From sequence record NZ_CP013482.1: DNA of 64,000 nt. One strand, written 5' to 3'. A program made the position numbers and the translations under genes. The notes beneath the pieces were generated by a model. It made no database searches. It was not told where the DNA came from and was given only the letters and a program-made list of their open reading frames with translations. This document shows positions 27,429 through 51,051 of this stretch, in pieces (within the stretch, counting starts at the first letter, position 1; each line of letters opens with the position of its first letter). This stretch comes from a plasmid.

Positions 27429-27441
27429 TTTAGCCGCTAAA
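27429..27441. promoter_or_regulatory. KorB operator OB at trbBp
   Basis: TTTAGCCGCTAAA. Confidence 0.75.
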
Positions 27442-27622
27442 GTGCCCTCTATATGGGGGCACTTTTTTTGCCTGCCGTTTTGATCGGCACTGCCATCTTA
27501 TTTTTCCCACGCGATTCTACCGGTAAATCGGAATTTGTGTAGCCAATTTTCGATATTGCGTAAATCTCATGTTTCGTTATATCGTTCGCACGGTGTAACG
27601 ATTTGAAACATGACGGGACAAA

Positions 27623-28618: not shown

Positions 28619-28633
28619 AAGGAAATTCCACCG

Positions 28634-29053: not shown

Positions 29054-29055
29054 CT

Positions 29056-29367
29056 ATGGCTCTGCGAAAGATTCCGCTTCGGCGGGCAGGTAATCGTGTC
29101 ATCGAGTTCCTGGGCGGTGATCGCGAATTGGTAATGGTCTCGGGCCTGATGGCTGCGACGCTCGTATTCGTTGCAATGAGCGTCATCGCTGCCGTGTTCG
29201 GCGTGGTTCTGTGGATCTTCGCTCTCTGGGCGTTGCGCAAGATGGCGAAGGCCGACCCGCAGATGCGCAAGGTTTACCAGCGTAGTCTCCGCTACGCGAA
29301 CTACTACCCGCCGCGCGCCACGCCTTTTCGCCTGAATACACCAGCACAAGGGAGGCAATACAAGTGA
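29056..29367 (+). CDS. trbD: TrbD (VirB3-like)
   Basis: Size, TM profile, position. Confidence 0.75.
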   Translation: MALRKIPLRRAGNRVIEFLGGDRELVMVSGLMAATLVFVAMSVIAAVFGVVLWIFALWALRKMAKADPQMRKVYQRSLRYANYYPPRATPFRLNTPAQGRQYK

Positions 29368-32695: not shown

Positions 32696-32713
32696 GCCTG
32701 GAGTAAATCAAAC

Positions 32714-33628
32714 ATGAACAAGATTCACTGCATTGCACTTATCGCTGGCATGATTCCGGCGCTCACTTTCGCCGCCCCCGCACCGAAGACGGCTGGCGGC
32801 GAGGGCACGGATCCGGTCGCAGACGCATATTTCTCGAAGAACGCGCCGGCGCTGACTGAGGACGAGAAAGCGGCCATCAAGATCGGTAAGGAATGGGCAT
32901 CGAGCAAGACGATTACCCCCACGCGGGGACCGGACGGGTCGATCAACTATCCGTACCTTCCCGGCAAGCAATATCCGGTTGTGTGCGCCGTTCTACAGGT
33001 CTGCGACATCGCTTTGCAACCTGGGGAGTCGGTCACGGGATTGAACGCCGGGGATCCTCGTTATCAAGTGGAGCCGTCGATTTCTGGCTCCGGTGATACG
33101 GAACGCCTCCATCTGATTCTCAAGCCGCTTGACACCAATCTCAGCACAACGATGGTAGTCGCAACCAACCGGCGCGTGTACCACTTCCGTCTTAAGGCGT
33201 CGCGAGAAGACTCGATGCCGCTCGTGTCGTTCACCTATCCCGAGGTGGCGATGGCGAAATGGGACGCGATTCGTGCGAAGGAAGTCAAAGCGCGCAACGA
33301 AGCAACCATCAAGGATACGGGGGAATACCTGGGCGACCTGAATTTCAACTATCAGGTCGACGGGGCCGCCTCATGGAAGCCGGTTCGGGTCTACAACGAC
33401 GGGCGTAAGACGATCATCGAAATGCCCTCGACGATCGACCAAGGGGATGCGCCGGCTCTCCTCGTCGTAAGTAAGGATGGCGGCGTGTTCAGCGATGAGC
33501 AAACACGTCTTGTGAACTACCGCCTGCAAGGGAAGCGCTACATCGTCGACACCATTTTTGAGAAAGCCGTGCTTCTCGCTGGCGTCGGTTCGGAGCAAGA
33601 GCGCGTGACGATCACGAAGGGGAAGTGA
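32714..33628 (+). CDS. trbG: TrbG (VirB9-like)
   Basis: Signal peptide; size and position. Confidence 0.8.
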   Translation: MNKIHCIALIAGMIPALTFAAPAPKTAGGEGTDPVADAYFSKNAPALTEDEKAAIKIGKEWASSKTITPTRGPDGSINYPYLPGKQYPVVCAVLQVCDIALQPGESVTGLNAGDPRYQVEPSISGSGDTERLHLILKPLDTNLSTTMVVATNRRVYHFRLKASREDSMPLVSFTYPEVAMAKWDAIRAKEVKARNEATIKDTGEYLGDLNFNYQVDGAASWKPVRVYNDGRKTIIEMPSTIDQGDAPALLVVSKDGGVFSDEQTRLVNYRLQGKRYIVDTIFEKAVLLAGVGSEQERVTITKGK

Positions 33629-33629
33629 C

Positions 33630-34073
33630 ATGCGAAAGCTCATCCCGCTCGTGTCATTCATCGTCAGCGGCATCCTGCTCGCTGGATGCACTACGCCCCA
33701 GCCCTACGGCGATTTTTCTGCGGCTCAACCGGAAGTCGCACACCGTCTGGCCGACGCGGCCGTCGACCAGCTCTCGCTCCGCATGCCGCCCGCCAACACG
33801 CGGTTATCACTCCAGCAACCGGCGACCGACGCGTTTGGTCAAGCGCTGCTGGTCTCGCTGCGTACGCGTGGCTACGCGGTCCGTGAGTTCAATCCGGACG
33901 CATTGACGCCCTCGGCCGAAGCTGGCGTCCCGCTGCGCTACGTTGTCGATCACGGCGCTCGCATCACTGCGTATCGAGTCAGCTTGATCGTTGCCGGGAA
34001 AGCGATGAGCCGCGCATTCTCGACGGCCAACGGTGCCCCGGCCCCGGACGGTGCTTGGACGGTGGAGGAATAA
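33630..34073 (+). CDS. trbH: TrbH lipoprotein (VirB7-like)
   Basis: Lipobox LLAGC. Confidence 0.75.
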   Translation: MRKLIPLVSFIVSGILLAGCTTPQPYGDFSAAQPEVAHRLADAAVDQLSLRMPPANTRLSLQQPATDAFGQALLVSLRTRGYAVREFNPDALTPSAEAGVPLRYVVDHGARITAYRVSLIVAGKAMSRAFSTANGAPAPDGAWTVEE

Positions 34074-34076
34074 AGC

Positions 34077-35531
34077 ATGGCAAAAGAATTTGACCCGTTG
34101 TCGCCCGAGGCATCGCCGGGTGAAGTCGTAACTGGCGTGCGTCGGCTCAATCGCCTTCCGATCCTTATCATTGCAGGTATCGTCGTCGCTTTTGCAGGCA
34201 CGCTGTTCGTCCTCACGTTCCAGAAGGGGCAAGAGCAACACCAGGTGAAAGTGGGGAGTAACGACGATTCCAACGGGGTGAAGAAGCCAACGGATTCGTC
34301 CAAGGTCGCGGCAGCCATTGTCGCCGGCCAGCCAAGCGGAGTTATTCGCTCATCCAAACCCAGCACGCCAGCATTGCCTTTGACAGCGTCGGGGGTTCAG
34401 GCCGCACCTGCGACGGCCAGTGCGGTCGGCGTTCCTATCGCTCCGGTTGCGAACCGAGACGCACCGCCGCCGCCGCCGCGTGGAAACGCCGCTGGTGCGG
34501 GGACGGAATCCGACGCACGTCTCATCGCTCAGATCGAAGAAAATCGGTTCCGCTCTCTCGAGACTGCCAATCGGGCGAAGTCGAAGGTAGCTGTAGACGG
34601 CCCTGCGATCGGCGCTTCGGGCGGTCAGACCGTGACACCTGGCGGTCCCACTTCGCGAGACGACATGCTCGCGAGAATCGCTGACGCTCGTCAAAAGGCG
34701 ATGCAAGCCGGGGGGCAAACTACCTCGGTACAAACCATGTACCAAGACCAACTGGCGCGCGTGAAGGCGGGCGTGGGCAGTGCGCCGAGTCTTATCGGCA
34801 GCGGTGGGTCGGGTTCGCCGTCTCTACTCTCCAGCAGCGGCGCGAGCGACAATCGTAACGGCTATTCGCAGTTCTCTGCCTCGGGGCAAGGTGATCGCTG
34901 GAAACTCGATTCGGACGTGCAAGCACCACGCTCGCGATTCGAGATCCGCACCGGGGACGTTATCCCTGGCGTGATGATCAGCGGCATTAATTCCGATTTA
35001 CCGGGCCAGATCATGGGCCAGGTGTCGCAGAACGTTTATGACACCGCGACCGGAAAGCACCTTTTGATCCCTCAAGGAACACGACTGGTAGGCACGTACA
35101 ACAACAACGTCGTGTTCGGTCAATCCGCTGTTCTGATCGCCTGGCAACGCCTCGTGTTTCCGGACGGTAAAGCTCTCGATATTGGCTCAATGCCTGGCGC
35201 CGATGGAGCGGGCTATTCCGGCTTCCGAGATCAAGTCAATAACCACTATTTGCGCATCTACAGCTCCGCGTTGCTGATGTCGGCAATTACGGCCGGCGTT
35301 GCTTACAGCCAGGACCGCAATAGCACAAACGGCACGGGCTATCAGCAACCGACCGCCAGCAGCGAACTTAGTCAGGCACTCGGCCAGCAGCTCGGCCAAG
35401 TATCCGGACAACTGATCTCGAAGAACCTGAACATCGCGCCGACGCTGGAAATTCGCCCTGGCTATCGATTCAACATCGTGGTGGTCAAGGATCTCGATTT
35501 CAGCAAAGCCTACCAATCGTTTGACTACTGA
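34077..35531 (+). CDS. trbI: TrbI (VirB10-like)
   Basis: N-terminal TM, Pro-rich linker, conserved C-terminal domain. Confidence 0.85.
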   Translation: MAKEFDPLSPEASPGEVVTGVRRLNRLPILIIAGIVVAFAGTLFVLTFQKGQEQHQVKVGSNDDSNGVKKPTDSSKVAAAIVAGQPSGVIRSSKPSTPALPLTASGVQAAPATASAVGVPIAPVANRDAPPPPPRGNAAGAGTESDARLIAQIEENRFRSLETANRAKSKVAVDGPAIGASGGQTVTPGGPTSRDDMLARIADARQKAMQAGGQTTSVQTMYQDQLARVKAGVGSAPSLIGSGGSGSPSLLSSSGASDNRNGYSQFSASGQGDRWKLDSDVQAPRSRFEIRTGDVIPGVMISGINSDLPGQIMGQVSQNVYDTATGKHLLIPQGTRLVGTYNNNVVFGQSAVLIAWQRLVFPDGKALDIGSMPGADGAGYSGFRDQVNNHYLRIYSSALLMSAITAGVAYSQDRNSTNGTGYQQPTASSELSQALGQQLGQVSGQLISKNLNIAPTLEIRPGYRFNIVVVKDLDFSKAYQSFDY

Positions 35532-35547
35532 TCGGGAGAGTTCAGCC

Positions 35548-36324
35548 ATGAATCTGAGAAATCTCATTTCGCATTTAGCGGCTAAAGTCGGATGCGCTAC
35601 CGCCATCGCCCTCAGCGTGCTGGCCGCGCCGGCACACGCCGGTATCCCCGTGATCGACGGGACGAACGTGGTTCAAACGACGGTCTCGGCGTTGAACTCG
35701 GTCGCCTCCGTTGCGAAGCAGATCGAGCAATACCAAACGCAGTTGCAGCAGTACGAAAACATGCTGCGCAACTCGCTCGCGCCTGCTGCGTATATCTGGG
35801 ACCAGGTCAACTCGACGATCAACAAGATGCTGAACCTGCAAGACACCCTTTCGGGTTTGAAAGGGCAATACGGGAGCATCGATGCGTACTTGAACCGGTT
35901 CCAGAACGTCGGGTACTACCGCCAATCGCCCTGTTTCACCAACACGGGATGCTCCGCGTCCGAAATGGAAGCTATCCAGCAAGGACGGACTGCTTGGTCG
36001 GATAGCCAGAAGAAGGCAAACGACGCGGCGATCAAGCAACTGGATCAGCAGCAATCGGCCCTTTCCAAAGACGCCGATACGGTCGCTCGGTTGCAATCGC
36101 AGGCATCCGGTGCCGGCGGTCAAATGGAAGCGTTGCAGGCCGCAAATCAGCTTGCCAGCACCCAGGCGAACTCACTTCTGAACATCCGAAGCCTTTTGCT
36201 CGCGCAGCAAAACATTCTCGTGACCCGCTCTCAAATTGAGGCCGATCGCGAGGCCCAGTTGCAGGCCGGTGACGAGCAATTTCGTCGCGGAGCCTTCACG
36301 AAAAGCCCCGCCGTTAGCTGGTGA
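35548..36324 (+). CDS. trbJ: TrbJ (VirB5-like)
   Basis: Signal peptide then helical domain; an OB site sits within codons 10-14. Confidence 0.75.
   Translation: MNLRNLISHLAAKVGCATAIALSVLAAPAHAGIPVIDGTNVVQTTVSALNSVASVAKQIEQYQTQLQQYENMLRNSLAPAAYIWDQVNSTINKMLNLQDTLSGLKGQYGSIDAYLNRFQNVGYYRQSPCFTNTGCSASEMEAIQQGRTAWSDSQKKANDAAIKQLDQQQSALSKDADTVARLQSQASGAGGQMEALQAANQLASTQANSLLNIRSLLLAQQNILVTRSQIEADREAQLQAGDEQFRRGAFTKSPAVSW
35575..35587. promoter_or_regulatory. KorB operator OB inside the trbJ signal-peptide coding region
   Basis: TTTAGCGGCTAAA. Confidence 0.7.
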
Positions 36325-36365
36325 AAGGAGAGGGCAATGACATTCAAAGCGGGAGTGATTACGCC

Positions 36366-38105
36366 ATGAATCGAAAGGTTGTATTGGCCCTAGCGGGGAC
36401 TGCTGCGCTGCTCATGGCGACGTCCGCATTCGCCGCCGACAGTAGCGGGATGCTTGACCAGATTTTGGGCAAGTACAAGTCTGCCGCGTCCAACTGGTCC
36501 GGTGCCATTTCTACAGCGGCCACGTTCATTTTTTGGTCGATTGCGTTGATGAGCATGATCTGGACTTTTGGCATCCACGCACTGCGCAGGGCAGACTTCG
36601 GAGATACGTTCGTCGAACTAATTCGATTCATCACGCCACTCGGATTCTTCTGGTGGTTGGTCTTGAATGGCCCCGCCATTTCAACGGCGATCTTAGACGG
36701 CATGCGCCAATTGGCGTCCCAGGCTGGGGGTTACTCCACGGCCATGACTCCGTCCGGGATCGTTGACATTGGCTTCGACATTCTCGGAAAGGTAATCGAC
36801 AACTCCTCGGTGTGGTCGCCGGTAAATAGCCTCGTCGGGCTACTTATCGCCGTGGCGATTTTGATCTGCCTGCTTCTTGTTGGCGTGAACATGCTCCTTG
36901 TGCTGGTTTCGGGCTGGGTGCTCATTTATGCCGGGCAATTCTTCCTTGGGTTCGGTGGTGCGGGCTGGACCAGGGACACCGCCGTCAACTACATGAAGAC
37001 GGTTGTGAACATCGCTATTCAGGCATTCACGATGGTGCTGCTCGTCGGCATCGGAAAGTCTTTCGTCGACGTTTTTTATAGCGACATGGCCGGCGGCATT
37101 ACTTTCCGTGATCTCGTGATCATGCTCAGTGTTGCGGTCGTCTTGCTTGCCCTGATTAACAAGCTCCCTCCCATGATGGGCGGCATATTTGGTGGAGCCT
37201 CGACCGGCGGCATTGGTACTGCGGGAGCCGGCGCAGCAATGGCGACTATGGCAGCAGGCATCGGTGCGTTGGCTGCAACGGCTGCGGTAGCCCAAGCCGC
37301 TGCCTCCAGCGTGGGCGGTGGTATGAGTGCACTGAAGGCCGCCTATGACGCAGCGAAGGAGGAAATGGGCGGTTCCGCCGGGGGCGGTGGCAGCGGTGGC
37401 GAAAGCTCCGGGGATGCGAGCGTTGGGGGCGGGTCTCATGGCAGCAGTGGCAGTGCTGGCGGCGGTTCCGGTGAGGCTGGAGGCGGACAGGCGAGCGGAA
37501 AGAGCCAAGGCGGCAGCGGTGGGTTCTCTGCCGCGATGGGTCGCATGGGCCAGCTCGCGGCAGGTACGGCAGCTCACCTTGCGAAAGGCAGCGCCGCTGT
37601 AGCCAAGGACCGCATGGAAGCGATGATGGACTCCGCAAAGGAGCGAATCGCCGGAACGACTGGCGGCCAGATTGCGCAAGAAATTAGGTCGCCTGGTAGC
37701 GCCTCGCAAGCTCGTCAAGATGCGCGCGACATGGCTAAAGCGAACGAACTCTACGGTGCCGCAGTCGCTGCCGAAGCTCGTGACTTCATCGCCGGCCACG
37801 GTGCATCTCAATCGGGTACAGCCTCAGAACCGGACTTCTCCGGCGACTCCATGGGCGGTGCCGAATCGGCCAACCCATCAAGTACCGGAGACGCTTCGGC
37901 CGGTTCTGCCGCCGACAGCAGCGCAGCGTCCAGCTCGGCAAACAGTGAAGGGCAAGCCAGCGCGGCTCAAGGCACGGGCGACGGCAGTACAGGTGACGCC
38001 CCGTCCTCTCAGGCAGCCCAACCCGGCGCACAGCAATTCACTCCGAGTGCCGCTGAAAAGGCAGAAATCGACGAATTCGTCAACAACCAACAGAAGTCCG
38101 CTTAA
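36366..38105 (+). CDS. trbL: TrbL (VirB6-like) with Gly/Ser/Ala-rich C-terminal tail
   Basis: Multiple TM helices then a low-complexity tail; ORF begins at 36321. Confidence 0.8.
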   Translation: MNRKVVLALAGTAALLMATSAFAADSSGMLDQILGKYKSAASNWSGAISTAATFIFWSIALMSMIWTFGIHALRRADFGDTFVELIRFITPLGFFWWLVLNGPAISTAILDGMRQLASQAGGYSTAMTPSGIVDIGFDILGKVIDNSSVWSPVNSLVGLLIAVAILICLLLVGVNMLLVLVSGWVLIYAGQFFLGFGGAGWTRDTAVNYMKTVVNIAIQAFTMVLLVGIGKSFVDVFYSDMAGGITFRDLVIMLSVAVVLLALINKLPPMMGGIFGGASTGGIGTAGAGAAMATMAAGIGALAATAAVAQAAASSVGGGMSALKAAYDAAKEEMGGSAGGGGSGGESSGDASVGGGSHGSSGSAGGGSGEAGGGQASGKSQGGSGGFSAAMGRMGQLAAGTAAHLAKGSAAVAKDRMEAMMDSAKERIAGTTGGQIAQEIRSPGSASQARQDARDMAKANELYGAAVAAEARDFIAGHGASQSGTASEPDFSGDSMGGAESANPSSTGDASAGSAADSSAASSSANSEGQASAAQGTGDGSTGDAPSSQAAQPGAQQFTPSAAEKAEIDEFVNNQQKSA

Positions 38106-38118
38106 CCACGAGATCACA

Positions 38119-38697
38119 ATGATTAAGGCTATAAAACGAATCCTGGTCACTCTCGCGTGTGCTTTCGCCATCGGACAGTCGCCGCAAGCGTCGGCCCAAG
38201 TTTTGACGGGCGACGTCGGGCTGGCCTGCGAAGCAATTCTCTGCCTTTCGTCCGGGTTCCGGCCCGGTGAATGCGCGCCGTCACTGGCCCGCTACTTCGG
38301 GATTAGCTTCAAATTCTGGACCGATACGCTGCGCGGTCGAATCAATTTTCTGAATCTTTGCCCTGCGGGTAACGTCCCCGGTGGGGCCGACATGCCGTCC
38401 CTCATCAACACGATCGCGAACGGTGCTGGGCGCTGCGATGCCGACTATCTCAACATGAACAACATCGTCGAGGTAGAGGTGCGCGAGTGCGACGGTTATG
38501 GCGGGGGTGACACCGGGCCGTCCTGCTACACATACACGAAGCGGGTCATCAGCAACGTGCTGCCCACATACTGCGTCGCATACACGCAGAGCCAGTATCA
38601 GTACCTTCTTGGCGTCAAATACGTTGGGGAACCGCTCAAGGACGGTCATTGGATCTCCGATGCGAGCGGCGCACTCGTTAACGGGGCGAGCAAGTAA
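38119..38697 (+). CDS. trbM: TrbM
   Basis: 192 aa with signal peptide, position after trbL. Confidence 0.65.
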   Translation: MIKAIKRILVTLACAFAIGQSPQASAQVLTGDVGLACEAILCLSSGFRPGECAPSLARYFGISFKFWTDTLRGRINFLNLCPAGNVPGGADMPSLINTIANGAGRCDADYLNMNNIVEVEVRECDGYGGGDTGPSCYTYTKRVISNVLPTYCVAYTQSQYQYLLGVKYVGEPLKDGHWISDASGALVNGASK

Positions 38698-38699
38698 CC

Positions 38700-39359
38700 A
38701 TGCCCGTCATCGAGATCCCCCAGCACCTGCCAGAGCGCGTCGCTTGCTCGATTGCCGCAGCGGTCAAATATGAGATCCCGGCAAATCTCATGCTCGCCGT
38801 TGCCGAACAAGAGGGTGGCTCGCCTGGACTTGTGAAGCGCAACGGCGATGGCACTGTCGACGTCGGGTCAATGCAGTTCAACACCAAGTACCTCGCCGAC
38901 TTGCGTCGTTACGGCATTTCGGCTGAGGACGTGTCCCAAGCCGGCTGCTATCCGTTCGACCTTGCCGCCTGGCGATTGCGTGGGCACATCCTGCGCGATG
39001 CGGGGGATCTCTGGACGCGTGCGGCTAACTACCACTCGCGCACCCCTTCAAAAAACGCCACCTATCGCGCTTACATCCTGCCGCGTGCTGCGCGCTGGCA
39101 GAAGTGGCTCGAAGCGCGCTTCGTAACCTATGACTCCACCGCTGGCGTTGTCGAAATGCGTGTGCCAACGCAGGGTAGGGCAGAGCATGCCGGCACAAGT
39201 GAGTCCCCTGCCCTGCCCTCCACTGTTCCCCTCGGGGTGACGTCGAACGCCTTTCGGGTCGACCCCGCGAACACTCCAGCAGCCAAGGCACTCGCCACTG
39301 TCTACGGCCGCAATCTGAATGCGCCGTCAGATTCTCCCGGCACGGATTTTAGCCGCTAA
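38700..39359 (+). CDS. trbN: TrbN lytic transglycosylase (VirB1-like SLT domain)
   Basis: AEQEGGS..GSMQFN SLT catalytic region; stop embedded in an OB (..FSR*). Confidence 0.8.
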   Translation: MPVIEIPQHLPERVACSIAAAVKYEIPANLMLAVAEQEGGSPGLVKRNGDGTVDVGSMQFNTKYLADLRRYGISAEDVSQAGCYPFDLAAWRLRGHILRDAGDLWTRAANYHSRTPSKNATYRAYILPRAARWQKWLEARFVTYDSTAGVVEMRVPTQGRAEHAGTSESPALPSTVPLGVTSNAFRVDPANTPAAKALATVYGRNLNAPSDSPGTDFSR

Positions 39360-39360
39360 A
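39348..39360. promoter_or_regulatory. KorB operator OB overlapping the trbN stop and the trbP start region
   Basis: TTTAGCCGCTAAA. Confidence 0.75.
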
Positions 39361-39363
39361 GCG

Positions 39364-40098
39364 ATGAAGAACTTGACCCAACTCACCGAGCTTCAACCTG
39401 CCAAAGTCGGCACCACACTGCCCCGTCTTCACCTCAATGACGGCGTGTTGGAATGCTGTAAGTGGTTGGCCCTGCTTTTGATGACCGGGGACCACATCAA
39501 CAAGTATTTGATGGGCGACTCCTCTCCGGTCCTATTCAACGCCGGCCGAGCGGCAATGCCGATATTCGTTTTTGTATTGGCATACAACTTGGCACGCCCC
39601 GGCGCATTCGAGCACGGGACGTATCACCGAGCTATTCAGCGACTGGTGATTTCGGGTCTCGTTGCCACACCGGCTTTCATGGCGTTGGGTGGACTGCTGT
39701 CTGGGTGGTGGCCGCTGAACATCATGTTCACGTTGCTCACACTGACGTGCGTTCTGTATCTGTATGAGTCCGGCGGATCCGTCAACAAATTTACCGCAGC
39801 GGCCATCTTTCTCGCTGCCGGTTCGTGCGTTGAATTCTGGTGGCCGGCAATATCTCTCGGCGCTTCTGTTTGGTTTTACTCCAGGCGACCGAGTGTCGCC
39901 GCATTGGCAGTCGGCACCATCTCCTGCGCAGCGCTCTACTTCGTCAACTCCAACTTCTGGGCGTTCGCGGCTTTCCCGCTGGTCGCCTGCGTGGCGCGTC
40001 TGAATTTTCGCGTCCCACGAACTCGCTGGATCTTCTACACGTACTACCCCGCGCATCTGATCTTGCTCCTGCTGGCCCAGCAGACGCTTTCCCGATAA
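39364..40098 (+). CDS. trbP: TrbP (TraX-family pilin acetylase-like membrane protein)
   Basis: Polytopic membrane protein at the end of the trb operon. Confidence 0.65.
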   Translation: MKNLTQLTELQPAKVGTTLPRLHLNDGVLECCKWLALLLMTGDHINKYLMGDSSPVLFNAGRAAMPIFVFVLAYNLARPGAFEHGTYHRAIQRLVISGLVATPAFMALGGLLSGWWPLNIMFTLLTLTCVLYLYESGGSVNKFTAAAIFLAAGSCVEFWWPAISLGASVWFYSRRPSVAALAVGTISCAALYFVNSNFWAFAAFPLVACVARLNFRVPRTRWIFYTYYPAHLILLLLAQQTLSR

Positions 40099-40203
40099 GA
40101 CCGCCCAAAGAATAACCACCACTCAACACGAGTGTCGCGGGTGATAAAGCGCATTTGTTTAGTTGTACTAATTACCTTCGGCATATATTACGAGGACGTT
40201 GAC

Positions 40204-43200
40204 ATGAAAATTCGCATTTCTCGCGATCTTTCAAGGAGAATCCGGGCCGGCTTCTGCGCCGGGTTGGTTCTCCTCTCCTCGCTGCAACCGTGCTTTGCTG
40301 CCGCCAATTTGGACGACGTGGTCAAGGCAAATGCCGCGTGGGTTCCGAAAGATCACATCAATCAGGCTGAGCTACAGGACAAAGAAAAGGACGCTGCCGA
40401 CAAGGAGCGTATCCAGGGCGAATGGAGTGCGCTGGACGTTTCTCTCGCCCGCGACCCGCTCGGCGCAGCAAAGCAACGAGCTACCGGCGCGGCGACCGAA
40501 GCCGCACAGCGGATGTTGAATCAATTCGGCTCTGCCAAGCTGTCCTTGGGTGCCGGAGACGGCTTTAAGAACGGCAGTCTGGATGTGCTGCTTCCGCTTC
40601 GAGACACCGACAGCAATCTCACCTTCACGCAGCTCGGCTTCCGCCGATCGAATGCGTTGTCCGACAGCTACCGTTCGACGTTGAACATCGGTGTTGGACA
40701 TCGACACTTCTTCAACGGTGGCAAATGGATGATCGGGGGGAATGCCTTCTTTGATCATGACATTTCCCGAGACCATCTTCGCGGTGGTCTCGGCCTTGAG
40801 GCATGGACTGATTACCTGCGTCTGTCCGCCAATGCCTACCTGCGCATGAGCGGGTGGCAAGACTCTCCGGATATTCGCGGCTATATGGAGCGTCCTGCGA
40901 ACGGCTGGGACGTTCGCGCCGAAGGATATTTGCCTGCATTCCCTCACCTTGGCGCACGCCTCTACTACGAACAGTATTACGGCCAGAAGGTCGGGCTGTT
41001 CGGTACTGGAAGTTTGCAGCGCAACCCCCATGCAATTACTGTCGGCCTCACTTATCAGCCAATCCCGCTGTTTTCATTGGATCTCGACTATCGCGCCGGC
41101 CAGGGTGGCGTGTCACAGACGACGGTTCGTGCGAACCTGACTTACAAAATTGGCGTTCCTCTCGATAAGCAATTGCGAGCCTCATCGGTTCGCGATTCAA
41201 AGCTCTTGAAAGGCAGTCGTTACGAGCTGGTCAACCGGAATAACGAGATCGTTCTGGAGTACCAAAAGAAGGAAGCTCGCCTGACAATCCCGACTCAAAT
41301 TAGCGGGTATCCGGGCACAAGCACGACGTTCGCGGTCAACTCGTACACAGCCCTTGGGTTCTCATCTTTTGCCTGGACTGGTACTGCTGCGTCGTTTGTT
41401 CAATCATATTCCGGCGGAACCGCTACGCTCGCGCTTCCTTCCTACAACCAGAGTGGAACCAATACGTACACTCTCCAAGCGGTTGCCACTGAGACGGATG
41501 GCGCTGTCGCACGATCCAACGTCATGACGGTGACTGTAAATCCGCTGTCGGTAAGTCTCGATCGGAGCAAACCTACCGCCTCCGCTGATGGGCGCGACTC
41601 TGTGACGTTTACCGCCACTGTGATCGGGACCAACTCTGAACCTCTTGCCGACCAGGCAGTTGATTGGAAAATTCCGGCCAGCGCTACCGTTGTTTCCTTA
41701 ATGGCGCGCACAAACAAGGCCGGGAAGGCTGACGCGATTGTCACGGCGAAGTCTGCCGCCGTGATTCACGTCACTGCGACCTCAACGTTGTCCGGCGAGA
41801 CGGCATCCAATTCCGCAGCGTTCATAGGCGATCCTACGACGGCTGGCGTTGCTACGCTTGTGGCTCAACCTACCGCGATCGCCGCTAACGGCACGAGCAA
41901 ATCGATATTGACGGCGACATTGAAGGACGCCAAGGGCATCACGCTTGGATATGGCGTTCCGGTCAAGTGGGCGACGACCCTTGGCACATTGTCCGCCGAC
42001 ACGAGTGTCACCGATTCCAACGGCCAGGCCGTCGTTACACTGACCTCGGCTACGACGGCGGGCACGGCCACGGTGACGGCTTCCGCTATCGCTGGCAATA
42101 AAACGGCTGACGTTGCATTTACGCCGGATGTGGCAACAGCAAATGTTGCCTCGCTCACGGCTGCGCCGGCAGCGATCCCCGCCAATGGCGCCAGTAAATC
42201 GACGCTGACGGCGACTATCAAGGACGCGAACGGAAACACGGTGGGCGCCGGTATTCCTGTCAAGTGGCAAACAACCGCCGGCACGCTTTCGGCTGCGAAC
42301 TCGCAGACCGATACGTCAGGCGTTGCAATCGTAACGCTTACCTCCGCGACCGCCGCAGGGATTGCGAACGTGACCGCCACGACCACGGCGGGCAACAAGA
42401 CCGCACCTGTTGCGTTTGTGCCGGACACTGCCACGGCTGGCGTGGTGTCGCTCGTGGCGAATCCGACCAGCATTGCGGCCAACGGCAGCAGCACGTCCGC
42501 ACTGACGGCCACGGTCAAAGACGCGAGCGGCAACACCGTAGGTGCTGGGGTCACGGTGAACTGGTCGACCTCGGCCGGTAGCCTGACGGGCACGTCGAGC
42601 GTGACCGACGCCAGCGGCATCGCCACGATGACCCTTAAGTCAGCAACGACGGTCGGCGTCGCTACGGTATCGGCAACGGCCGTCGCAGGCAGCAAGACGG
42701 CCAACGTGACCTTTGTGCCGGACACGGCTACGGCTGGTGTGGTGTCGCTCGTGGCGAATCCGACTAGCATCGCAGCCAACGGCAGCAGCACATCCACGCT
42801 GACGGCCACCGTCAAGGATGCTTACGGCAATGCGGTGGGTGCTGGCGTCACCGTGAACTGGTCGACCTCGGCCGGTAGCCTGACGGGCACATCGAGCGTG
42901 ACCGACGCCAGCGGTATCGCCATGATGACGCTCAAGTCGGCAACGACGGCGGGCACAGCCACGGTAACGGCAGCGGCAGTCGCCGGCAGCAAGACGGCCA
43001 ACGTGACCTTTGTGCCGGACATGACTACTGCGGCCGTGGTGTCGCTCGCGGCGAATCCGACCAGTATTGCGGCCAACGGCAGCAGCACTTCCGCTCTGAC
43101 GGCCACGGTCAAGGATGGCAACGGTAACGCAATGGGTGCCGGCGTCACCGTGAATTGGACGACCACGGCGGGTAGCCTGGCGGGCACGTCGAGCGTGACC

Positions 43201-44865
43201 GACGCCAGCGGCATCGCCACGATGACGCTCAAGTCGGCAACGACGGTCGGCGTCGCCACGGTAACAGCAGCGGCCGTCGCCGGCAGCAAGACGGCCAACG
43301 TGACCTTTGTGCCGGACACAGCCACGGCGGGCGTCGTTTCGCTCATGGCGAATCCGATCAGCATCACGGCCAACGGCAGCAGCACGTCCGCACTGACGGC
43401 TTCGGTGAAGGATGCGAGCGGCAACACCGTGGGTGCTGGTGTCACCGTGAACTGGTCGACCACGGCCGGTAGCCTGACAGGTACGTCGAGCGTGACCGAC
43501 GCCAGCGGCATTGCCACGATGACGCTCAAGTCGGCTACGACGGCGGGCACGGCCACGGTAACGGCTGCGGCCGTCGCCGGTAGCAAGACGGCCAGCGTGG
43601 CGTTTGTGCCGGATACGGCCACGGCGGGCGTGGTGTCGCTGGTGGCGAATCCGACGAGCATTGCGGCCAACGGCAGCAGCACGTCGACGCTGACCGCCAC
43701 TGTCAAGGACGCCAACGGTAACGCCTTGGGGGCCGGTATCGCTGTGAACTGGTCGACCACGGCGGGGAGCCTGACGGGAACGTCGAGCGTGACGAACGCT
43801 AGCGGCGTTGCGACGATGACGCTCACATCGCCCACGACGGTCGGTGTCGCCACGGTAACGGCTGCGGCGGTCGCCGGTAGCAAGACGGCCAGCGTGACGT
43901 TTGTTGGCGATCCGGCAACGGCCCGCGTGGTCAGCCTGACGCCGCCGACTGCCACTGCATATGTTGGCGGGATTGCGACCACGTACACGGCCACGGTGAA
44001 GGACGCCAACGGCTTCACGGTTGGGGCCGGTGTCTCGGTCACATGGTCTGTGAGTGCCGGAACGCCGAGCGCCACCAGCACCGTGACTAATTCATCCGGT
44101 CAGGCGTCGATCAACGTTGTATCACCGAACGTGGTCGGTAGCGGGACGATCACGGCCAGTGCCGTCGCTGGTTCAGCGAATGCGACGATCAACTACGTTG
44201 CCAACATGAACACCCTGCGCGTTGTTTCTTTGTCGCCCAACATGAACAATGTCCCGGCAAATGGAAGCTCAACGGTGATGTTGCTTTCGTCTGTGCGCGA
44301 CGCATGGGGCAACAATCCGGGCGCGGGAGTCACGGTCAACTGGTCGGACTCGTTGGGGCGCTTGTCGGCGGGAGCTACGGCCACTGACGGGAACGGAACG
44401 GCGGTGAACTACCTGACGGCCCCCGGAGCGGCGGGCACCTCGTCCGTGAACGCGAGGATCGCGGCTACTGGTGACGGCGGTGTAGGCACAGCCGTTACGT
44501 GGGTGAGTACCTTTAGCGCTGCGAACGTCAGTGTGTCAACGTCGCCGGATATGCAGCCGAACGCGAACGGCATCCTGTACGTGAGCGGCTTCATCACTAC
44601 GGCAACGCAGTCCTCTAGCGGGACGGTGTACATCACCGGCATCACCTACAACAACAGCTATGGCTCACAAAGTGCGTACATGGAAATCAACGGCGGCACC
44701 TATTGGGCCAACGCATCCGGCCTCTCGATTCCTTGGGGGTCGGGTGGGTCACTGGTGATACAACAGCACGAGGGCACGGGCATGGTTCCGGCCGTCTTCC
44801 AGTCGGTCACGTTGTCGCTTAGCACGGGACAAACGGTCACGCTTAATAGCGGGTCGGCACAGTGA
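40204..44865 (+). CDS. Giant inverse autotransporter adhesin (intimin/invasin family): signal peptide, beta-barrel translocator, ~9 Big_1 Ig-like repeats, C-terminal domain
   Basis: N-terminal barrel region; ~100-aa repeats VVSLVANPTSIAANGSSTS..TATVKDA..G..VNWSTTAGSL; ORF begins at 40132. Confidence 0.8.
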   Translation: MKIRISRDLSRRIRAGFCAGLVLLSSLQPCFAAANLDDVVKANAAWVPKDHINQAELQDKEKDAADKERIQGEWSALDVSLARDPLGAAKQRATGAATEAAQRMLNQFGSAKLSLGAGDGFKNGSLDVLLPLRDTDSNLTFTQLGFRRSNALSDSYRSTLNIGVGHRHFFNGGKWMIGGNAFFDHDISRDHLRGGLGLEAWTDYLRLSANAYLRMSGWQDSPDIRGYMERPANGWDVRAEGYLPAFPHLGARLYYEQYYGQKVGLFGTGSLQRNPHAITVGLTYQPIPLFSLDLDYRAGQGGVSQTTVRANLTYKIGVPLDKQLRASSVRDSKLLKGSRYELVNRNNEIVLEYQKKEARLTIPTQISGYPGTSTTFAVNSYTALGFSSFAWTGTAASFVQSYSGGTATLALPSYNQSGTNTYTLQAVATETDGAVARSNVMTVTVNPLSVSLDRSKPTASADGRDSVTFTATVIGTNSEPLADQAVDWKIPASATVVSLMARTNKAGKADAIVTAKSAAVIHVTATSTLSGETASNSAAFIGDPTTAGVATLVAQPTAIAANGTSKSILTATLKDAKGITLGYGVPVKWATTLGTLSADTSVTDSNGQAVVTLTSATTAGTATVTASAIAGNKTADVAFTPDVATANVASLTAAPAAIPANGASKSTLTATIKDANGNTVGAGIPVKWQTTAGTLSAANSQTDTSGVAIVTLTSATAAGIANVTATTTAGNKTAPVAFVPDTATAGVVSLVANPTSIAANGSSTSALTATVKDASGNTVGAGVTVNWSTSAGSLTGTSSVTDASGIATMTLKSATTVGVATVSATAVAGSKTANVTFVPDTATAGVVSLVANPTSIAANGSSTSTLTATVKDAYGNAVGAGVTVNWSTSAGSLTGTSSVTDASGIAMMTLKSATTAGTATVTAAAVAGSKTANVTFVPDMTTAAVVSLAANPTSIAANGSSTSALTATVKDGNGNAMGAGVTVNWTTTAGSLAGTSSVTDASGIATMTLKSATTVGVATVTAAAVAGSKTANVTFVPDTATAGVVSLMANPISITANGSSTSALTASVKDASGNTVGAGVTVNWSTTAGSLTGTSSVTDASGIATMTLKSATTAGTATVTAAAVAGSKTASVAFVPDTATAGVVSLVANPTSIAANGSSTSTLTATVKDANGNALGAGIAVNWSTTAGSLTGTSSVTNASGVATMTLTSPTTVGVATVTAAAVAGSKTASVTFVGDPATARVVSLTPPTATAYVGGIATTYTATVKDANGFTVGAGVSVTWSVSAGTPSATSTVTNSSGQASINVVSPNVVGSGTITASAVAGSANATINYVANMNTLRVVSLSPNMNNVPANGSSTVMLLSSVRDAWGNNPGAGVTVNWSDSLGRLSAGATATDGNGTAVNYLTAPGAAGTSSVNARIAATGDGGVGTAVTWVSTFSAANVSVSTSPDMQPNANGILYVSGFITTATQSSSGTVYITGITYNNSYGSQSAYMEINGGTYWANASGLSIPWGSGGSLVIQQHEGTGMVPAVFQSVTLSLSTGQTVTLNSGSAQ
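41830..44220. repeat. Tandem ~300-bp DNA repeats (Big_1 modules); five central copies (42421..43920) are near-identical
   Basis: Direct repetition of gtgccggacacggc(c/t)acggc(t/g)gg(c/t)gtggtgtcgctcgtggcgaatccgac. Confidence 0.9.
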
Positions 44866-44889
44866 TCTAGGCCCAGCAGATTCCCCTTT

Positions 44890-44922
44890 GAGGCGGGTGG
44901 AGAAATCCACTCGCTTTTTTTT
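44890..44922 (+). terminator. Intrinsic terminator after the adhesin gene
   Basis: gcgggtgga gaaa tccactcgc hairpin followed by T9. Confidence 0.6.
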
Positions 44923-45028
44923 ATTTATTTGTTGTATTCAACAGATAAATAAAATACACTTGATTCCAAGGTCGCGAACAGAGGTCGTGACGACAATCGA
45001 AGTCAAATTTACCGAGAGGAACAACACC

Positions 45029-45790
45029 ATGATTTTCCCTGTTATCGTTTTGGCACTTGGCTTGAACGGCGTCGTCCAAGGCAACATCAACGACCACGGG
45101 ACGCACGAGAAAGAAATTGAGGCCACTCAGATCCGCGAGCTTCGCGACGCTCGCGCTGCGAATCAGTGGTGCCGTGACAATGACCGCAGCCGCCAGAGTA
45201 ACGGCAACTACATCAATTGCGAGCCTTACGAGGAACTTTACCTGACGCGTTTGAATGATCGTCGCGAAACGTTGATCGCCCAAATCGCGGAAAAGCGGGG
45301 TGCGGCTGTGGCATTGAAGGCTGCGACGCCGAGTGCCGACGAGGCGGCGGTGGCCGATATCGGTTTCTTCGGAAAATTGGGCAACTATATGGGTACACCG
45401 GTGACTACCGCGATGGTTGCATACCAAAATCAGAACGAGTGCCTAGAAGATGTGCGCGATGGTGACGGCGACGATTGCTCGGTTCTTGCGGCACGGCTAA
45501 AAGTCGCGGTGCGGGGGGCTCAGGAATATCGCGAAAAGCTGATTGCGGAAGGCCCGGGCTTCCTGCGTGACCCAAGCCACCGACTCATCATCACAATGGA
45601 AAGTGATGAACTAAAAGCCGCCGCTGCGGCGATCACGGCGAAGGTGAACGCCGAGCAGTCGTTGGCCGATTGCGGGGCCGGGCTGGCGATCGGCCGTCGC
45701 TCGGACTGCACCACGCAAAGCGTCATCTATCACTCGGCAGTCGATAGCCTCGACCGTGCGTCAACGGCAAAGCCGGCCACCTCGGAATGA
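45029..45790 (+). CDS. Secreted hypothetical protein (signal peptide MIFPVIVLALGLNGVVQG)
   Basis: GAGAGGA RBS; AT-rich upstream region; Cys-containing. Confidence 0.55.
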   Translation: MIFPVIVLALGLNGVVQGNINDHGTHEKEIEATQIRELRDARAANQWCRDNDRSRQSNGNYINCEPYEELYLTRLNDRRETLIAQIAEKRGAAVALKAATPSADEAAVADIGFFGKLGNYMGTPVTTAMVAYQNQNECLEDVRDGDGDDCSVLAARLKVAVRGAQEYREKLIAEGPGFLRDPSHRLIITMESDELKAAAAAITAKVNAEQSLADCGAGLAIGRRSDCTTQSVIYHSAVDSLDRASTAKPATSE

Positions 45791-46800: not shown

Positions 46801-46904
46801 TCGGGGTTGGTCGACAAGTGAATTGCGGCGTCAGTCTACGCGATTTCTGACCGCAAACGGCGTCCTTGACGCTTGCCACAGGCGCCCATACACTGCCGCC
46901 ACTT

Positions 46905-47080
46905 TGGTGCCCGCTGCCGCCCCTGTGCCGGCAGTAGTTAAACGGGAATCAGGCGGCTCCCCCTCTCCGGGCGGTGGCTAACCTGAGCTGCCCCCGCAAC
47001 GGTAAGCGTCTACTCGATACGTTGCCCCTCACACCACTGCGCGCAAGCGTGGGAAGGTGGGGCCGCGTGAGCGCCAGCCC
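46905..47080 (+). ncRNA. Cobalamin (AdoCbl) riboswitch in the btuB leader
   Basis: GGTGCC.., AAACGGGAA, CCCGCAACGGTAAG, B12-box-like ACCACTG..GGGAAGGTG; upstream promoter TTGACG/TACACT near 46869..46899. Confidence 0.6.
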
Positions 47081-47202
47081 GGATACCGGCCAGAGAGGGG
47101 AGTTGCGCCGAATTTTTCGCCAAAGACGAGTTTGACGCGCACTCGCATAGCGCCACGGCCTGCGGGGAGCGGGCCGGGTGAAATCGCACCGGAACTCTAA
47201 CA

Positions 47203-49056
47203 ATGCAAACGAAACTCGCGGCCGGCGCTGCCGCGCTCGCGCTCATTTCCTCGCCGCACGTTGCAACAGCCCAAACCGCCGACGACACAGGCAGCGCGGT
47301 ACTGCCCAAAACCGTTGTCACCGCCGACAGGGCACCCCAACGCCTTCAGGACGCTATCCCACAGACCACGCTTATCGACAGCCAGGCGATCACGGATTCC
47401 GCCGCCAACGACCTGCCCGGCCTGCTGCGCTTGGCACCGGGCGCTCAGGTCGTCAGCAACGGTGGGCCGGGGTCTACTTCAAGCCTATTCCTTCGCGGCT
47501 CGCAAGCCAGCCAGTCGCTCGTCCTTATTGACGGCGTGCGAGTCGATTCGGTAAGCGCCGGCTCAGCGCAGATTTCGCAAATCCCACTCGATCAAATCGA
47601 TCATATCGAAATCGTGAACGGCAACGTGTCTGCGCTGTACGGGTCAGGGGCGATTGGGGGCGTCGTTCAAATATTCACGAAGGACGGCGGCAATCATCCG
47701 CCTAAATTCTTCGCCTCGGCAGGGTACGGCAGCTATCACACACAGACGCAGAATGCCGGCGTAAGTGGTGCGCTCGATGCCGACGGTCGGACGACTTTTA
47801 GCGCGTCCCTGGCGCGGTACAAGACCGATGGTTTTTCATCCATCGACCCGGCCAAGCAACCAAGCGTAAACCCGAACGCCAACGGCTACCTCAACGAGAG
47901 TGGTAGCGCATCTATCAAACACCGATTCGTGAACGGTTGGGACGTGGGTGTCCGCTACTTTCAATCCAACGGCTACAACAGCTACGACAATGCTTACGGC
48001 CAACCTACCGACTTGAACTACGGTATTAGCAAGGTGCAGCAGGCATCCGTTTTCGCCAACGGAAACGTAACCGACTGGTGGAAAACGCACGTTACGATCG
48101 CAGCCGGCAACGACCGTAGTATCCAGAAAACGAACGGCCTCTATAACGGCCGGTTTGACACGGACAATAGGCAATACACATGGCAGAATGATTTCGCCAT
48201 CGCCAGCGGCCAGAAGATCCTCGCGGGCTATGAACACCTCGACCAGAGCTTTGATTCTAGTGCCTATGCCGCCCCCTCCCGTCGCGTCGACTCAGGCTTT
48301 ATCGGCTACAACGGGCGCTTTGGTGCTCATCAGTTTCAAGCTAACCTGCGGCGCGACCAGTACTCCGATTTCGGCGGTGCAAGCAGCTATTACCTCGGGT
48401 ACGGCTACGACATAACTGATAGCTGGAAGGTTCTTGCGAGCTATTCGGACGCCTTCCGCGCGCCGACCTTCAACGACCTGTACTACCCCTACGGCGGCAA
48501 CACCAACATTCGCCCAGAGACAAGTCACTCCGTCGAAGCTGGAGTGCAGTACGCCACCGACGCGCTTGGCGTGATGCGTTTGACAGTGTTCCAAACTCGC
48601 TACTCGAATCTCATTCAGTATGCGTCAGACCTTGCGGGCAACTACACGGCACAGAATGTGGGCACGGCCAAGGTGCAGGGCCTGGAAGGCTCTTGGAGTG
48701 GGCAGGTTTACAAGACCGACGTGCGCGCTTCTTTCACTTTCCAAAATCCTGTGAACGAGGACACGCATACCGATCTGAGCCGCCGCGCACGGCACTTCGC
48801 GTCGTTCGCTGTCAACCGGAACATTGAGAGTGTGCGCGTGGGCGCTGAATGGATTCTGAGCGGTGCGCGGCTCGATGGCACCAAGCACCTCGGCGGATAC
48901 GGCCTAGTGAACCTGTCGGCCCGCTACAACATCACAAAGGCGTGGTACGTCGCCCTGCAAGTGCAGAATCTGCTGAACAAGGATTACGAGCTTGCCTACT
49001 CGTATGAAACGCCCAAACGCAGCGCTTTCATCACTCTCGGCTGGCAGCAATTCTGA
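47203..49056 (+). CDS. btuB: TonB-dependent outer-membrane cobalamin receptor BtuB-like
   Basis: Signal peptide, TonB box region, plug and barrel, C-terminal aromatic residue (..GWQQF). Confidence 0.8.
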   Translation: MQTKLAAGAAALALISSPHVATAQTADDTGSAVLPKTVVTADRAPQRLQDAIPQTTLIDSQAITDSAANDLPGLLRLAPGAQVVSNGGPGSTSSLFLRGSQASQSLVLIDGVRVDSVSAGSAQISQIPLDQIDHIEIVNGNVSALYGSGAIGGVVQIFTKDGGNHPPKFFASAGYGSYHTQTQNAGVSGALDADGRTTFSASLARYKTDGFSSIDPAKQPSVNPNANGYLNESGSASIKHRFVNGWDVGVRYFQSNGYNSYDNAYGQPTDLNYGISKVQQASVFANGNVTDWWKTHVTIAAGNDRSIQKTNGLYNGRFDTDNRQYTWQNDFAIASGQKILAGYEHLDQSFDSSAYAAPSRRVDSGFIGYNGRFGAHQFQANLRRDQYSDFGGASSYYLGYGYDITDSWKVLASYSDAFRAPTFNDLYYPYGGNTNIRPETSHSVEAGVQYATDALGVMRLTVFQTRYSNLIQYASDLAGNYTAQNVGTAKVQGLEGSWSGQVYKTDVRASFTFQNPVNEDTHTDLSRRARHFASFAVNRNIESVRVGAEWILSGARLDGTKHLGGYGLVNLSARYNITKAWYVALQVQNLLNKDYELAYSYETPKRSAFITLGWQQF

Positions 49057-49838: not shown

Positions 49839-50162
49839 TTATCCTTCCGGGGAGATCAAAAAGCGATCCCGCTTTTTACCAACTATCCAAGCGGGCGCTC
49901 GCCCGCGACCACTCCATGTGGCACCCGAAGCAGGGTCCCGGTACTTAGCCGCAAGCGGGCCGCTGCGCTTGCGGCGCGCCCCAAATAGATCCCGCTCGGT
50001 CAATTGGTACTCAACGATAAGGCGTCGAACATCGGCCACAACACTGCCTTTTTCCGCCGCCAGTGCTTTAGCCGCCTCGGCTTCTAATGCCTCAACGCGC
50101 TTGAGGGTCTCTGCTTCAATTGCCTCGATCTGTGCGCGAATCTCTGCATATTTCTTCGTCAT
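49839..50162 (-). CDS. H-NS-like nucleoid-associated (stealth) protein
   Basis: Coiled-coil N-terminus; C-terminal H-NS DNA-binding core TWSGRGRAPAW. Confidence 0.75.
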   Translation of the reverse strand: MTKKYAEIRAQIEAIEAETLKRVEALEAEAAKALAAEKGSVVADVRRLIVEYQLTERDLFGARRKRSGPLAAKYRDPASGATWSGRGRAPAWIVGKKRDRFLISPEG

Positions 50163-50437: not shown

Positions 50438-50674
50438 ATGCAAACCGTCAACATCCACGACGCCAAATCGCAATTGTCGAAGCTCATCGAGCGCGCCAAG
50501 AGTGGCGAGGACGTTGTTATCGCCAAGGCGGGGGAGCCGGTCGCCCGTCTCGTCGCCTTCGTCCCGGCCAAGCCGGAACGCCGCTTCGGTGGCCTCAAGG
50601 GTAAGATCCGTATCGCTTCGGATTTCGACGACGCCTTGCCGGCCGATGTGCTTGCCGCGTTTGAGGGACAGTGA
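50438..50674 (+). CDS. vapB: Phd/YefM-type antitoxin (VapB)
   Basis: MQTVNIHDAKSQLSKLIERA.. antitoxin fold; overlaps the toxin start. Confidence 0.8.
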   Translation: MQTVNIHDAKSQLSKLIERAKSGEDVVIAKAGEPVARLVAFVPAKPERRFGGLKGKIRIASDFDDALPADVLAAFEGQ

Positions 50675-51051
50675 TGCGCTTGCTTCTCGACACGCACGTT
50701 TTTCTGTGGGCTGTCACAGACGACCCGAAACTGAGCCTTGCTTCGCGTGAGGTTATTCAGTTGGCTGATGAGGTCTACGTAAGCGCCGCGAGCATTTGGG
50801 AGATTTCTATTAAGGCCGGTCTCGGCAAGATCGACGTCGATCCGACCGCCCTTACGGCGGAGATACGCGCGGCTGGCTTTTTGGAGTTGCCGATCACTAC
50901 GGCGCATGCCGCCAAGGTATGCACACTGCCCGACATTCATCGTGACCCGTTCGACCGGCTGCTGGTCGCGCAAGCGATGTGTGAGCCGCTACAGCTATTC
51001 ACAGCAGATGCCAATGTCTTGAAGTACACAGACTTGGCCTGGCGCGTGTAA
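50671..51051 (+). CDS. vapC: PIN-domain toxin VapC
   Basis: LLDTHVFLW...; conserved acidic residues. Confidence 0.8.
   Translation: MMRLLLDTHVFLWAVTDDPKLSLASREVIQLADEVYVSAASIWEISIKAGLGKIDVDPTALTAEIRAAGFLELPITTAHAAKVCTLPDIHRDPFDRLLVAQAMCEPLQLFTADANVLKYTDLAWRV

Follow-up and report, generated by a model that had tools for sequence, protein, structure and literature searches.

A plasmid-borne inverse autotransporter adhesin at the end of the trb operon of Pandoraea apista pPA35, with a possible role in conjugation

Why would a conjugative plasmid carry a 4.66 kb gene for a surface adhesin directly behind the last conserved gene of its mating apparatus? The question is raised by plasmid pPA35 (CP013482, 77,293 bp), the only plasmid of the type strain Pandoraea apista DSM 16535T, which came from cystic fibrosis (CF) sputum. 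The DNA analysed here, hereafter the window, is a 64 kb stretch of this plasmid (64,000 nucleotides of record NZ_CP013482.1), and all positions are those of the window unless another contig is named. The gene in question goes unmentioned in the 2016 paper describing pPA35. An earlier note, made from the letters of the window alone, had described it as an inverse autotransporter of the intimin/invasin type, carried as cargo immediately after trbP. That description holds for the most part, with the corrections given below, and its interpretation is supported in part. The best explanation overall, to which we assign a probability of about one half, is that it encodes a type Ve adhesin, coupled to the trb operon, that would hold cells together and raise transfer. 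The parts of the gene are as follows.

40204..44865, + strand: inverse autotransporter (type Ve) adhesin gene, an uninterrupted open reading frame of 1553 aa plus stop
40204..40305, + strand: predicted Sec signal peptide, aa 1 to ~34, read from the translation
40459..41244, + strand: beta-barrel translocator, aa 86-347 by Pfam and aa 105-354 against crystal structures
41377..41805, + strand: two divergent barrel-proximal Ig-like modules, aa 392-432 and 455-534 (independent E-values with the repeat model, 0.027 and 0.068)
41821..42414, + strand: two 99-aa Big_1 modules (starting at 41821 and 42118), ~60% identical to the central five
42415..43899, + strand: five tandem 297-bp (99-aa) Big_1 modules, 82-88% identical in DNA
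43900..44466, + strand: two divergent distal Big_1 modules, aa 1233-1329 and 1331-1421 (2.7e-24 and 2.4e-20 with the repeat model)
44467..44862, + strand: orphan C-terminal tip domain, aa 1422-1553 (~130 aa), with no family above cut-off
45029..45790, + strand: downstream gene; its 253-aa orphan product begins with a signal-peptide-like stretch and has no Pfam or NCBIfam match

The product is almost certainly a type Ve (inverse autotransporter, IAT) outer-membrane adhesin, as judged from its domain matches and alignments to known structures. It has the arrangement that defines the class, namely a Sec signal peptide read from the translation, an N-terminal barrel and a C-terminal passenger of Big_1 Ig-like domains, and the domain search proposed in the earlier note returned both expected families (Pfam IAT_beta, PF11924, E 3.5e-88; Big_1, E 2.5e-128). 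The sequence is 100% identical to pPA35 AT395_25065 / WP_082164639.1 (1553 aa), and the length of 1554 aa given before had counted the stop codon. The ATG at 40204, which is also the start in RefSeq (WP_082164639.1), is preceded 8-12 nt upstream by a GAGGA ribosome-binding site. A longer frame from a GTG at 40132 was rejected, the ATG having the ribosome-binding site, the signal peptide and the RefSeq call. The GenBank entry, named 'hypothetical', uses a TTG start that yields 1533 aa and deletes the signal peptide. In that peptide a basic n-region precedes the hydrophobic core AGFCAGLVLLSSL, and the AXA-like motif FAAA would place cleavage before N35. The IAT_beta match covers aa 86-347 with 296 bits (cut-off, 22.3), and aa 105-354 align to the entire chains of the invasin (4E1T, 1.2e-66) and intimin (4E1S, 1.2e-61) barrels, in agreement with the N-terminal beta-barrel that had been claimed. 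The only cysteines of the whole protein, C18 and C30, both lie within the signal peptide.

The passenger is longer and less uniform than had been thought. Where the note counted about nine Big_1 repeats, Pfam Big_1 matches 10 stretches (419 bits, E 2.5e-128, with Invasin_D3 overlapping them), and a hidden Markov model (HMM) trained on the repeats of this protein resolves 11 Ig-like modules: two weak ones adjacent to the barrel, at which the intimin D00/D0 structures 6TQD and 6TPL align, seven regular 99-aa units (aa 540-1232) and two divergent ones (aa 1233-1421). The central array has a period of 297 bp (99 aa) at 42415..43899, or 42415..43904 according to Tandem Repeats Finder (5.0 copies, 85% matches), rather than 300 bp at 42421..43920. 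Nor are its five repeats near-identical, as the note put it: compared pairwise and in register, they show identities of 82-88% at the DNA level and 83-92% at the protein level, the longest stretches shared without a mismatch measure 17-46 bp, and each pair differs by 18-33 synonymous versus 8-17 non-synonymous codon changes. Such limited identity, with short exact runs and mostly synonymous differences, suggests old copies that have been maintained by selection. It also weakens the prediction of easy recombinational length variation, so unequal recombination between the repeats is possible on this sequence but not strongly predicted. Only one further record spans the array: another P. apista assembly lists a 1001-aa product that matches aa 553-1553 without a difference and has an equal number of repeats; the remaining members of the protein cluster are start-codon variants of one sequence. 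Short-read assemblies of pPA35 break within the adhesin gene, limiting the comparison of repeat number to that one record, which for the same reason is probably incomplete or miscalled in its 5' part.

The tip, presumed from its position and sequence to be the ligand-binding end, is cysteine-free and rich in Ser, Gly and Thr. It has no match in the PDB by phmmer, none in Pfam at E 10 other than a sub-threshold hit to DUF4859 (E 0.025), and no counterpart among the 120 best full-length homologues; a single-sequence AlphaFold2 model of it reaches a pLDDT of 34.5, too low to be of use. An exhaustive phmmer search of 1.84 billion representative proteins returned a single match, a 195-aa fragment that is 88% identical. 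The contig with this only other copy, L174 (2.2 kb; loci collected here are numbered with an L), is 77% identical in DNA to window positions 44193..45585, and the gene that follows there (1354..2016) encodes a product 70% identical in amino acids to the 253-aa protein, aligned from the ATG at 45029. Among 5.8 billion proteins the 253-aa protein is found only in these two copies, each after the adhesin tip, and the two proteins may work together. The 253-aa frame was considered as a SinI-like partner and rejected for want of any NCBIfam or Pfam match. Elsewhere, an IAT gene on a Yersinia hibernica plasmid (L177, 6001..7975) is followed by two genes annotated as 'SinI family autotransporter-associated'.

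Set against characterised adhesins, the label 'intimin/invasin type' holds for the barrel and the stalk and fails for the specific families. All of the specific NCBIfam models score far below their cut-offs (intimin NF033627, 402.9 versus 1400; SinH, 278 versus 999; Inv, 245.6 versus 710). LysM has no match in the whole protein at E 0.01 or in aa 1-89 at E 10. There is no match to the C-type lectin domain Intimin_C, and no disulfide is possible outside the signal peptide cysteines. The integrin-binding D4-D5 region of invasin was likewise not found, 1CWV aligning only to the Ig repeats at aa 757-1195. Like Yersinia invasin (InvA) and the intimin (Eae) of enteropathogenic and enterohaemorrhagic Escherichia coli, the pPA35 protein has an N-terminal 12-stranded barrel followed by an exported Big_1 rod. 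It differs from both in having 11 Ig modules instead of 4 to 5, in lacking the C-type lectin-like tip and its cysteines, and in lying on a plasmid beside a type IV secretion system (T4SS) instead of on the locus of enterocyte effacement or elsewhere on a chromosome; unlike intimin, it also lacks LysM. The E. coli proteins YeeJ, FdeC and IatB/C/D and Salmonella SinH likewise carry a long Big_1 rod on an IAT barrel and are 31-37% identical to it over most of the length, but they are chromosomal and have other tips, and YeeJ has LysM. Bordetella BipA is another intimin/invasin-like protein of the Burkholderiales, with ~1,580 aa and tandem ~90-aa repeats, and is chromosomal and Bvg-regulated. As a protein, then, the pPA35 adhesin is a new, divergent member of the known IAT family with an orphan tip. 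The long E. coli IATs and SinH promote biofilm upon expression (PMC6714894, PMC5595812).

The position of the gene on the plasmid bears on what such an adhesin might do, and the features concerned are these.

27623..40098, + strand: trbB..trbP mating-pair-formation (Mpf) operon, with trbP as its last conserved gene
39319..40098, + strand: trbP, a TraX-family pilin acetylase (NCBIfam TrbP, 3.7e-40; Pfam TraX, 1.7e-45)
39348..39360, + strand: last of ten KorB operators (TTTAGCSGCTAAA), the edge of the KorB-regulated backbone, ~850 nt before the adhesin start
40099..40203, + strand: trbP-adhesin spacer of 105 nt, with a ribosome-binding site only
44890..44927, + strand: intrinsic terminator 25 nt past the adhesin stop (G+C-rich stem of 12 bp, GAAA loop, U-run)

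The adhesin gene does lie directly after trbP, as had been noted, starting 105 nt downstream of its end on an IncP-like conjugative plasmid; the genes for TrbI, J, L, M and N stand directly upstream of trbP. A scan of the 105-nt spacer on the + strand found neither a terminator nor a consensus sigma-70 promoter, and its RNA folds no better than shuffled sequences (z 0.08). The structure past the adhesin stop has a predicted energy of -26.4 kcal/mol (z -4.0), equalled by 0 of 200 shuffles. The absence of a terminator after trbP, together with a strong one after the adhesin gene, points to the latter as the probable last cistron of the unit. We infer that transcription of the adhesin gene probably comes, at least in part, from the KorB-controlled trb unit, which it would close. 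The window contains 10 perfect 13-bp KorB operators (OB sites, TTTAGCSGCTAAA) at 10246..39360, compared with 0.74 expected by chance, and the same scan of the accessory part from 40 to 64 kb gave zero perfect sites. The backbone encodes a TraI relaxase, TraG, topoisomerase III, an ArdC/zincin TraC-like protein, KorB, IncC and a KfrB-Fic protein, and TrbB to TrbP are present in IncP order. The replication initiator (25395..26519) is of the RPA type (PF10134) and not TrfA, so that pPA35 is IncP-like and not IncP-1 proper; an IncP-1-style regulon rides on a non-IncP-1 backbone. The best DNA match among known plasmids reaches ~74% identity.

In the closest backbones, those of Xanthomonas oryzae pXOOYN24 and a Xanthomonas hyacinthi plasmid, other small genes and no IAT lie between trbP and the resolvase gene, and across related backbones this interval ranges from 0.4 to 9 kb. 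The adhesin gene thus occupies a variable slot, and calling it cargo is apt in that sense. No insertion sequence (IS), transposase gene or transposon end flanks it. The G+C content of the barrel part is 56%, against 58% for the backbone, and the gene shows no compositional sign of recent acquisition.

Is this placement peculiar to pPA35? The next-best proteins are only 45-55% identical to the adhesin, and many are encoded on conjugative elements. The genes of the nearest relatives begin ~80-130 nt downstream of the last gene of a T4SS cluster, on the same strand, in several architectures.

L020, Halopseudomonas metagenome-assembled genome with a related Trb backbone (TrbN 68% identical): trbF-G-H-I-J-L-M-N, 98-nt gap, IAT
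L175, Stenotrophomonas plasmid with the Ti-type trb order: trbI, 98-nt gap, IAT
L009, Pseudomonas sp. BRG-100: virB6-11, type IV coupling protein (T4CP), trbM, 129-nt gap, IAT
L099, metagenome contig: virB10, virB11, 101-nt gap, IAT
L011/L013, Paraburkholderia tropica: IAT closing a virB/T4CP/LPD7 cluster
L004, MPF_I element: IAT between an exclusion gene and a DotM-like gene
L002, Bordetella flabilis plasmid: IAT after DotA/TraY and an EAL-domain gene
L173, E. coli IncI1 plasmid pUMNK88_Hly, and four gut-metagenome contigs: trbC, PLD, 108-nt gap, IAT

For a count, the barrels of 171 loci were clustered at 80% identity into 59 clusters, comprising 16 near clusters (at least 46% identical to pPA35) and 43 distant ones, mostly enterobacterial and chromosomal. 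T4SS genes occur within 10 kb in 8 of the 16 near clusters versus 1 of the 43 distant ones (Fisher p 4.5e-5); the two blind scans by themselves give 4 of 11 and 1 of 43 (p 0.005). Among the ~43 distant clusters, which comprise the long E. coli IATs and the SinH kind, only the IncI-plasmid group has a T4SS nearby. A rough neighbour-joining tree gives a similar picture, 10 of the 17 leaves in the clade holding pPA35 being T4SS-linked. The barrels of the IATs at L004 (10001..16210), within an MPF_I transfer region of Tra/Dot-like type, and at L009 (10001..14971), behind a cluster of the VirB type, are 83% identical, which implies that the adhesin gene moves between plasmid types. Several T4SS-linked relatives (L004, L009, L006 and L099) open with lipobox-like signal sequences, e.g. 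LAATTGC or LVTGC; these IATs may be lipoproteins, unlike the pPA35 protein with its signal-peptidase-I type site. A further 423 matches on Salmonella plasmids are fragments of LysM-IATs on virulence plasmids of the pSLT type.

A role in transfer can be pictured as follows. Sec export, insertion by the beta-barrel assembly machinery (BAM) and export of the passenger as a hairpin are established steps of type Ve biogenesis. The signal peptide would take the adhesin to the periplasm by the Sec route, and BAM would insert the N-terminal 12-stranded barrel, through which the passenger would emerge as a hairpin, driven by the sequential folding of its Ig modules. The resulting rod of ~11 Ig-like modules, roughly 40 nm long, would display the unique 130-aa tip beyond the lipopolysaccharide layer. 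Made together with the mating apparatus from the trb unit, the adhesin would tether plasmid-bearing cells to other cells or to surfaces, providing the stable close contacts that P-type systems with rigid pili require and thereby more transfer in liquid or in loosely packed settings. Any benefit to the host bacterium in adhesion or biofilm would be additional.

Plasmid-encoded surface proteins that stabilise donor-recipient contact are well known, and include TraN of F, PilV of R64 and enterococcal PrgB. Unlike the pPA35 adhesin, these are core or regulated, experimentally proven parts of their transfer systems, and their folds and secretion routes are unrelated. Closer in outline are RSP/RSP2 of the IncHI plasmid R27 and the Big protein of the IncC plasmid pKAZ3, without which conjugation loses efficiency, above all in liquid or at 25 C (PMC6764697, PMC8730810). 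They share with the pPA35 adhesin a large size, Ig domains and a gene within or next to a transfer region. They differ in having Big_3, or Big_1 with DUF4165, in lacking the IAT barrel, in being exported by the T4SS and in binding flagella and pili. In particular, RSP export depends on TrhC, whereas the pPA35 protein has a type Ve translocator built in, and beyond the Ig fold there is no sequence relationship. The idea that these IncHI/IncC proteins might themselves be IATs was rejected, RSP being a Big_3 protein exported by the T4SS. The nearest experimental analogue is synthetic: 'mating assemblers' built on the Neae scaffold of intimin use the same secretion scaffold, on the surface of donor or recipient, but are engineered with a defined antigen partner. 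Nanobodies displayed on this scaffold raised liquid mating ~100-fold for RP4, 48-fold for pKM101 and 28-fold for R388, with no effect on solid media or on the F-like plasmid R1 (PMC9825185). By analogy, this liquid mating, together with the recurrent placement of IAT genes at the 3' end of T4SS clusters, lends indirect support to a link with conjugation.

Several observations weigh against a function in transfer. The closest backbone relatives, the Xanthomonas plasmids, lack the adhesin, so transfer does not require it, and the site after trbP is the usual accessory slot of IncP-type plasmids, so the placement may be opportunistic. Operon ends are common insertion sites, and on conjugative plasmids of 50-100 kb many genes fall less than 10 kb from a T4SS by chance. 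The counts given above include loci L001-L012, which were not sampled blindly, and use a T4SS reference set of MPF_T and MPF_I only. No conserved leader or promoter was seen upstream of the T4SS-linked IAT genes, and in Enterobacter and Yersinia the plasmid IAT genes are cargo flanked by IS elements, at a distance from T4SS genes. Characterised E. coli IATs, when overexpressed, gave biofilm and no autoaggregation (PMC6714894).

As the main alternative, the gene may be ordinary niche-adaptation cargo that has no specific part in plasmid transfer, helps the host to form biofilms, to attach to plants or abiotic surfaces or to colonise the CF airway, and lies after trbP only because that is the standard accessory slot of IncP-type plasmids. 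We consider this explanation somewhat short of an even chance; a transfer-promoting role is plausible and roughly level with it. Related backbones without the adhesin and a trbP-resolvase interval that varies from 0.4 to 9 kb are in keeping with such cargo, as are the nutrient-uptake and surface genes found in the same slot (a riboswitch-controlled BtuB-like receptor in pPA35 and a Fiu-type receptor after the L020 IAT), the many chromosomal IATs of the same clade (e.g. in Achromobacter and at L010), the IS-flanked IATs of enterobacterial plasmids and the service of characterised IATs in host adhesion or biofilm (PMC6714894). What host cargo leaves unexplained is that near relatives lie ~100 nt behind the final T4SS gene in no fewer than six different T4SS gene orders, and that T4SS genes are enriched near close over distant relatives; moreover, no IS or transposon ends flank the pPA35 gene. 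A virulence role specific to mammals fits poorly with relatives that come mostly from soil, water and reactors.

The same position would also suit a surface-exclusion or anti-aggregation factor that prevents unproductive donor-donor pairs, as TraT does for F, since an outer-membrane protein is encoded at the end of the Mpf operon and the L004 homologue directly follows a gene for an 'exclusion-determining protein'. There is no similarity to TraT or TrbK, however, Ig-rod IATs have been adhesins wherever tested, and the unique tip suggests binding and not shielding; we regard this as improbable. Still less probable is a decaying or silent gene without current function. The 'hypothetical' GenBank entry, with its start that removes the signal peptide, and the one P. 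apista record that shows only a 1001-aa C-terminal product might be so read, but that product is identical to aa 553-1553 and is probably a record artefact in its 5' part. The uninterrupted 4.66 kb frame with its good ribosome-binding site, signal peptide and terminator, the repeats that differ mostly at synonymous sites, and the copy at 77% nucleotide identity in which the tip is 88% and the downstream gene product 70% identical in amino acids all argue against decay.

Beyond the mating adhesin preferred for pPA35, a more general pattern might be proposed, which on the sequences compared is tentative and, in our view, rather doubtful. One clade of type Ve adhesins, spanning Burkholderiales, Pseudomonas, Xanthomonadales and an IncI-plasmid group in E. 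coli, may have been recruited repeatedly as the terminal gene of unrelated Mpf operons. Its members would be self-exporting factors that stabilise mating aggregates or pairs for rigid-pilus systems, with fast-evolving or orphan tips choosing recipients or surfaces, and pPA35 would be one trb-co-expressed example.

Other genes of the window are listed here.

18697..19656, - strand: Fic/DOC-domain protein ending in a KfrB domain, encoded in the central control region
46866..46894: promoter-like site
46888..47108, + strand: full-length cobalamin riboswitch RF00174 (84 bits versus a gathering score of 31.5)
47203..49056, + strand: BtuB-like TonB-dependent receptor gene, directly after the riboswitch
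~49839..50162, - strand: H-NS-family gene
~50438..51051, + strand: PhdYeFM/PIN toxin-antitoxin genes, adjoining the resolvase gene together with the H-NS-family gene
57172..59139, - strand: AT3-SGNH fused acyltransferase gene, another surface-modifying gene in the accessory region

The positions of the H-NS and PhdYeFM/PIN genes were obtained as an offset from Pfam notes on contig L179, with matching gene order. Judged from the riboswitch match, the accessory slot of pPA35 carries a predicted B12-regulated outer-membrane receptor. The L020 IAT is also followed by a TonB-dependent receptor gene (11099..13327), of the Fiu type (953 bits) and without a riboswitch. A module of IAT plus TonB receptor common to pPA35 and L020 was rejected, the receptors being dissimilar (BtuB-like versus Fiu-type), and the resemblance in gene order is probably coincidental. 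Enzymes of the AT3-SGNH type often O-acetylate surface polysaccharides.

Liquid is a poor setting for the transfer of broad-host-range plasmids with rigid pili (IncP, N, W and relatives), and how they manage in nature is of practical concern for the dissemination of resistance and catabolic genes. Conjugation-promoting adhesins have been described for Gram-positive plasmids, for F and I plasmids and, recently, as the Big proteins of IncHI/IncC. The pPA35 locus is a variant of this known idea of a plasmid-encoded mating adhesin. The literature searched held no report of IAT adhesin genes that repeatedly close Mpf operons, and none of a self-exporting inverse autotransporter linked to conjugation. 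If the placement is functional, these genes would represent a new and easily recognised accessory module of conjugation systems, nature's equivalent of the 'mating assemblers' engineered on the intimin scaffold, and would offer surface targets for blocking transfer. For P. apista, the gene is an overlooked candidate colonisation factor on the type strain's only plasmid.

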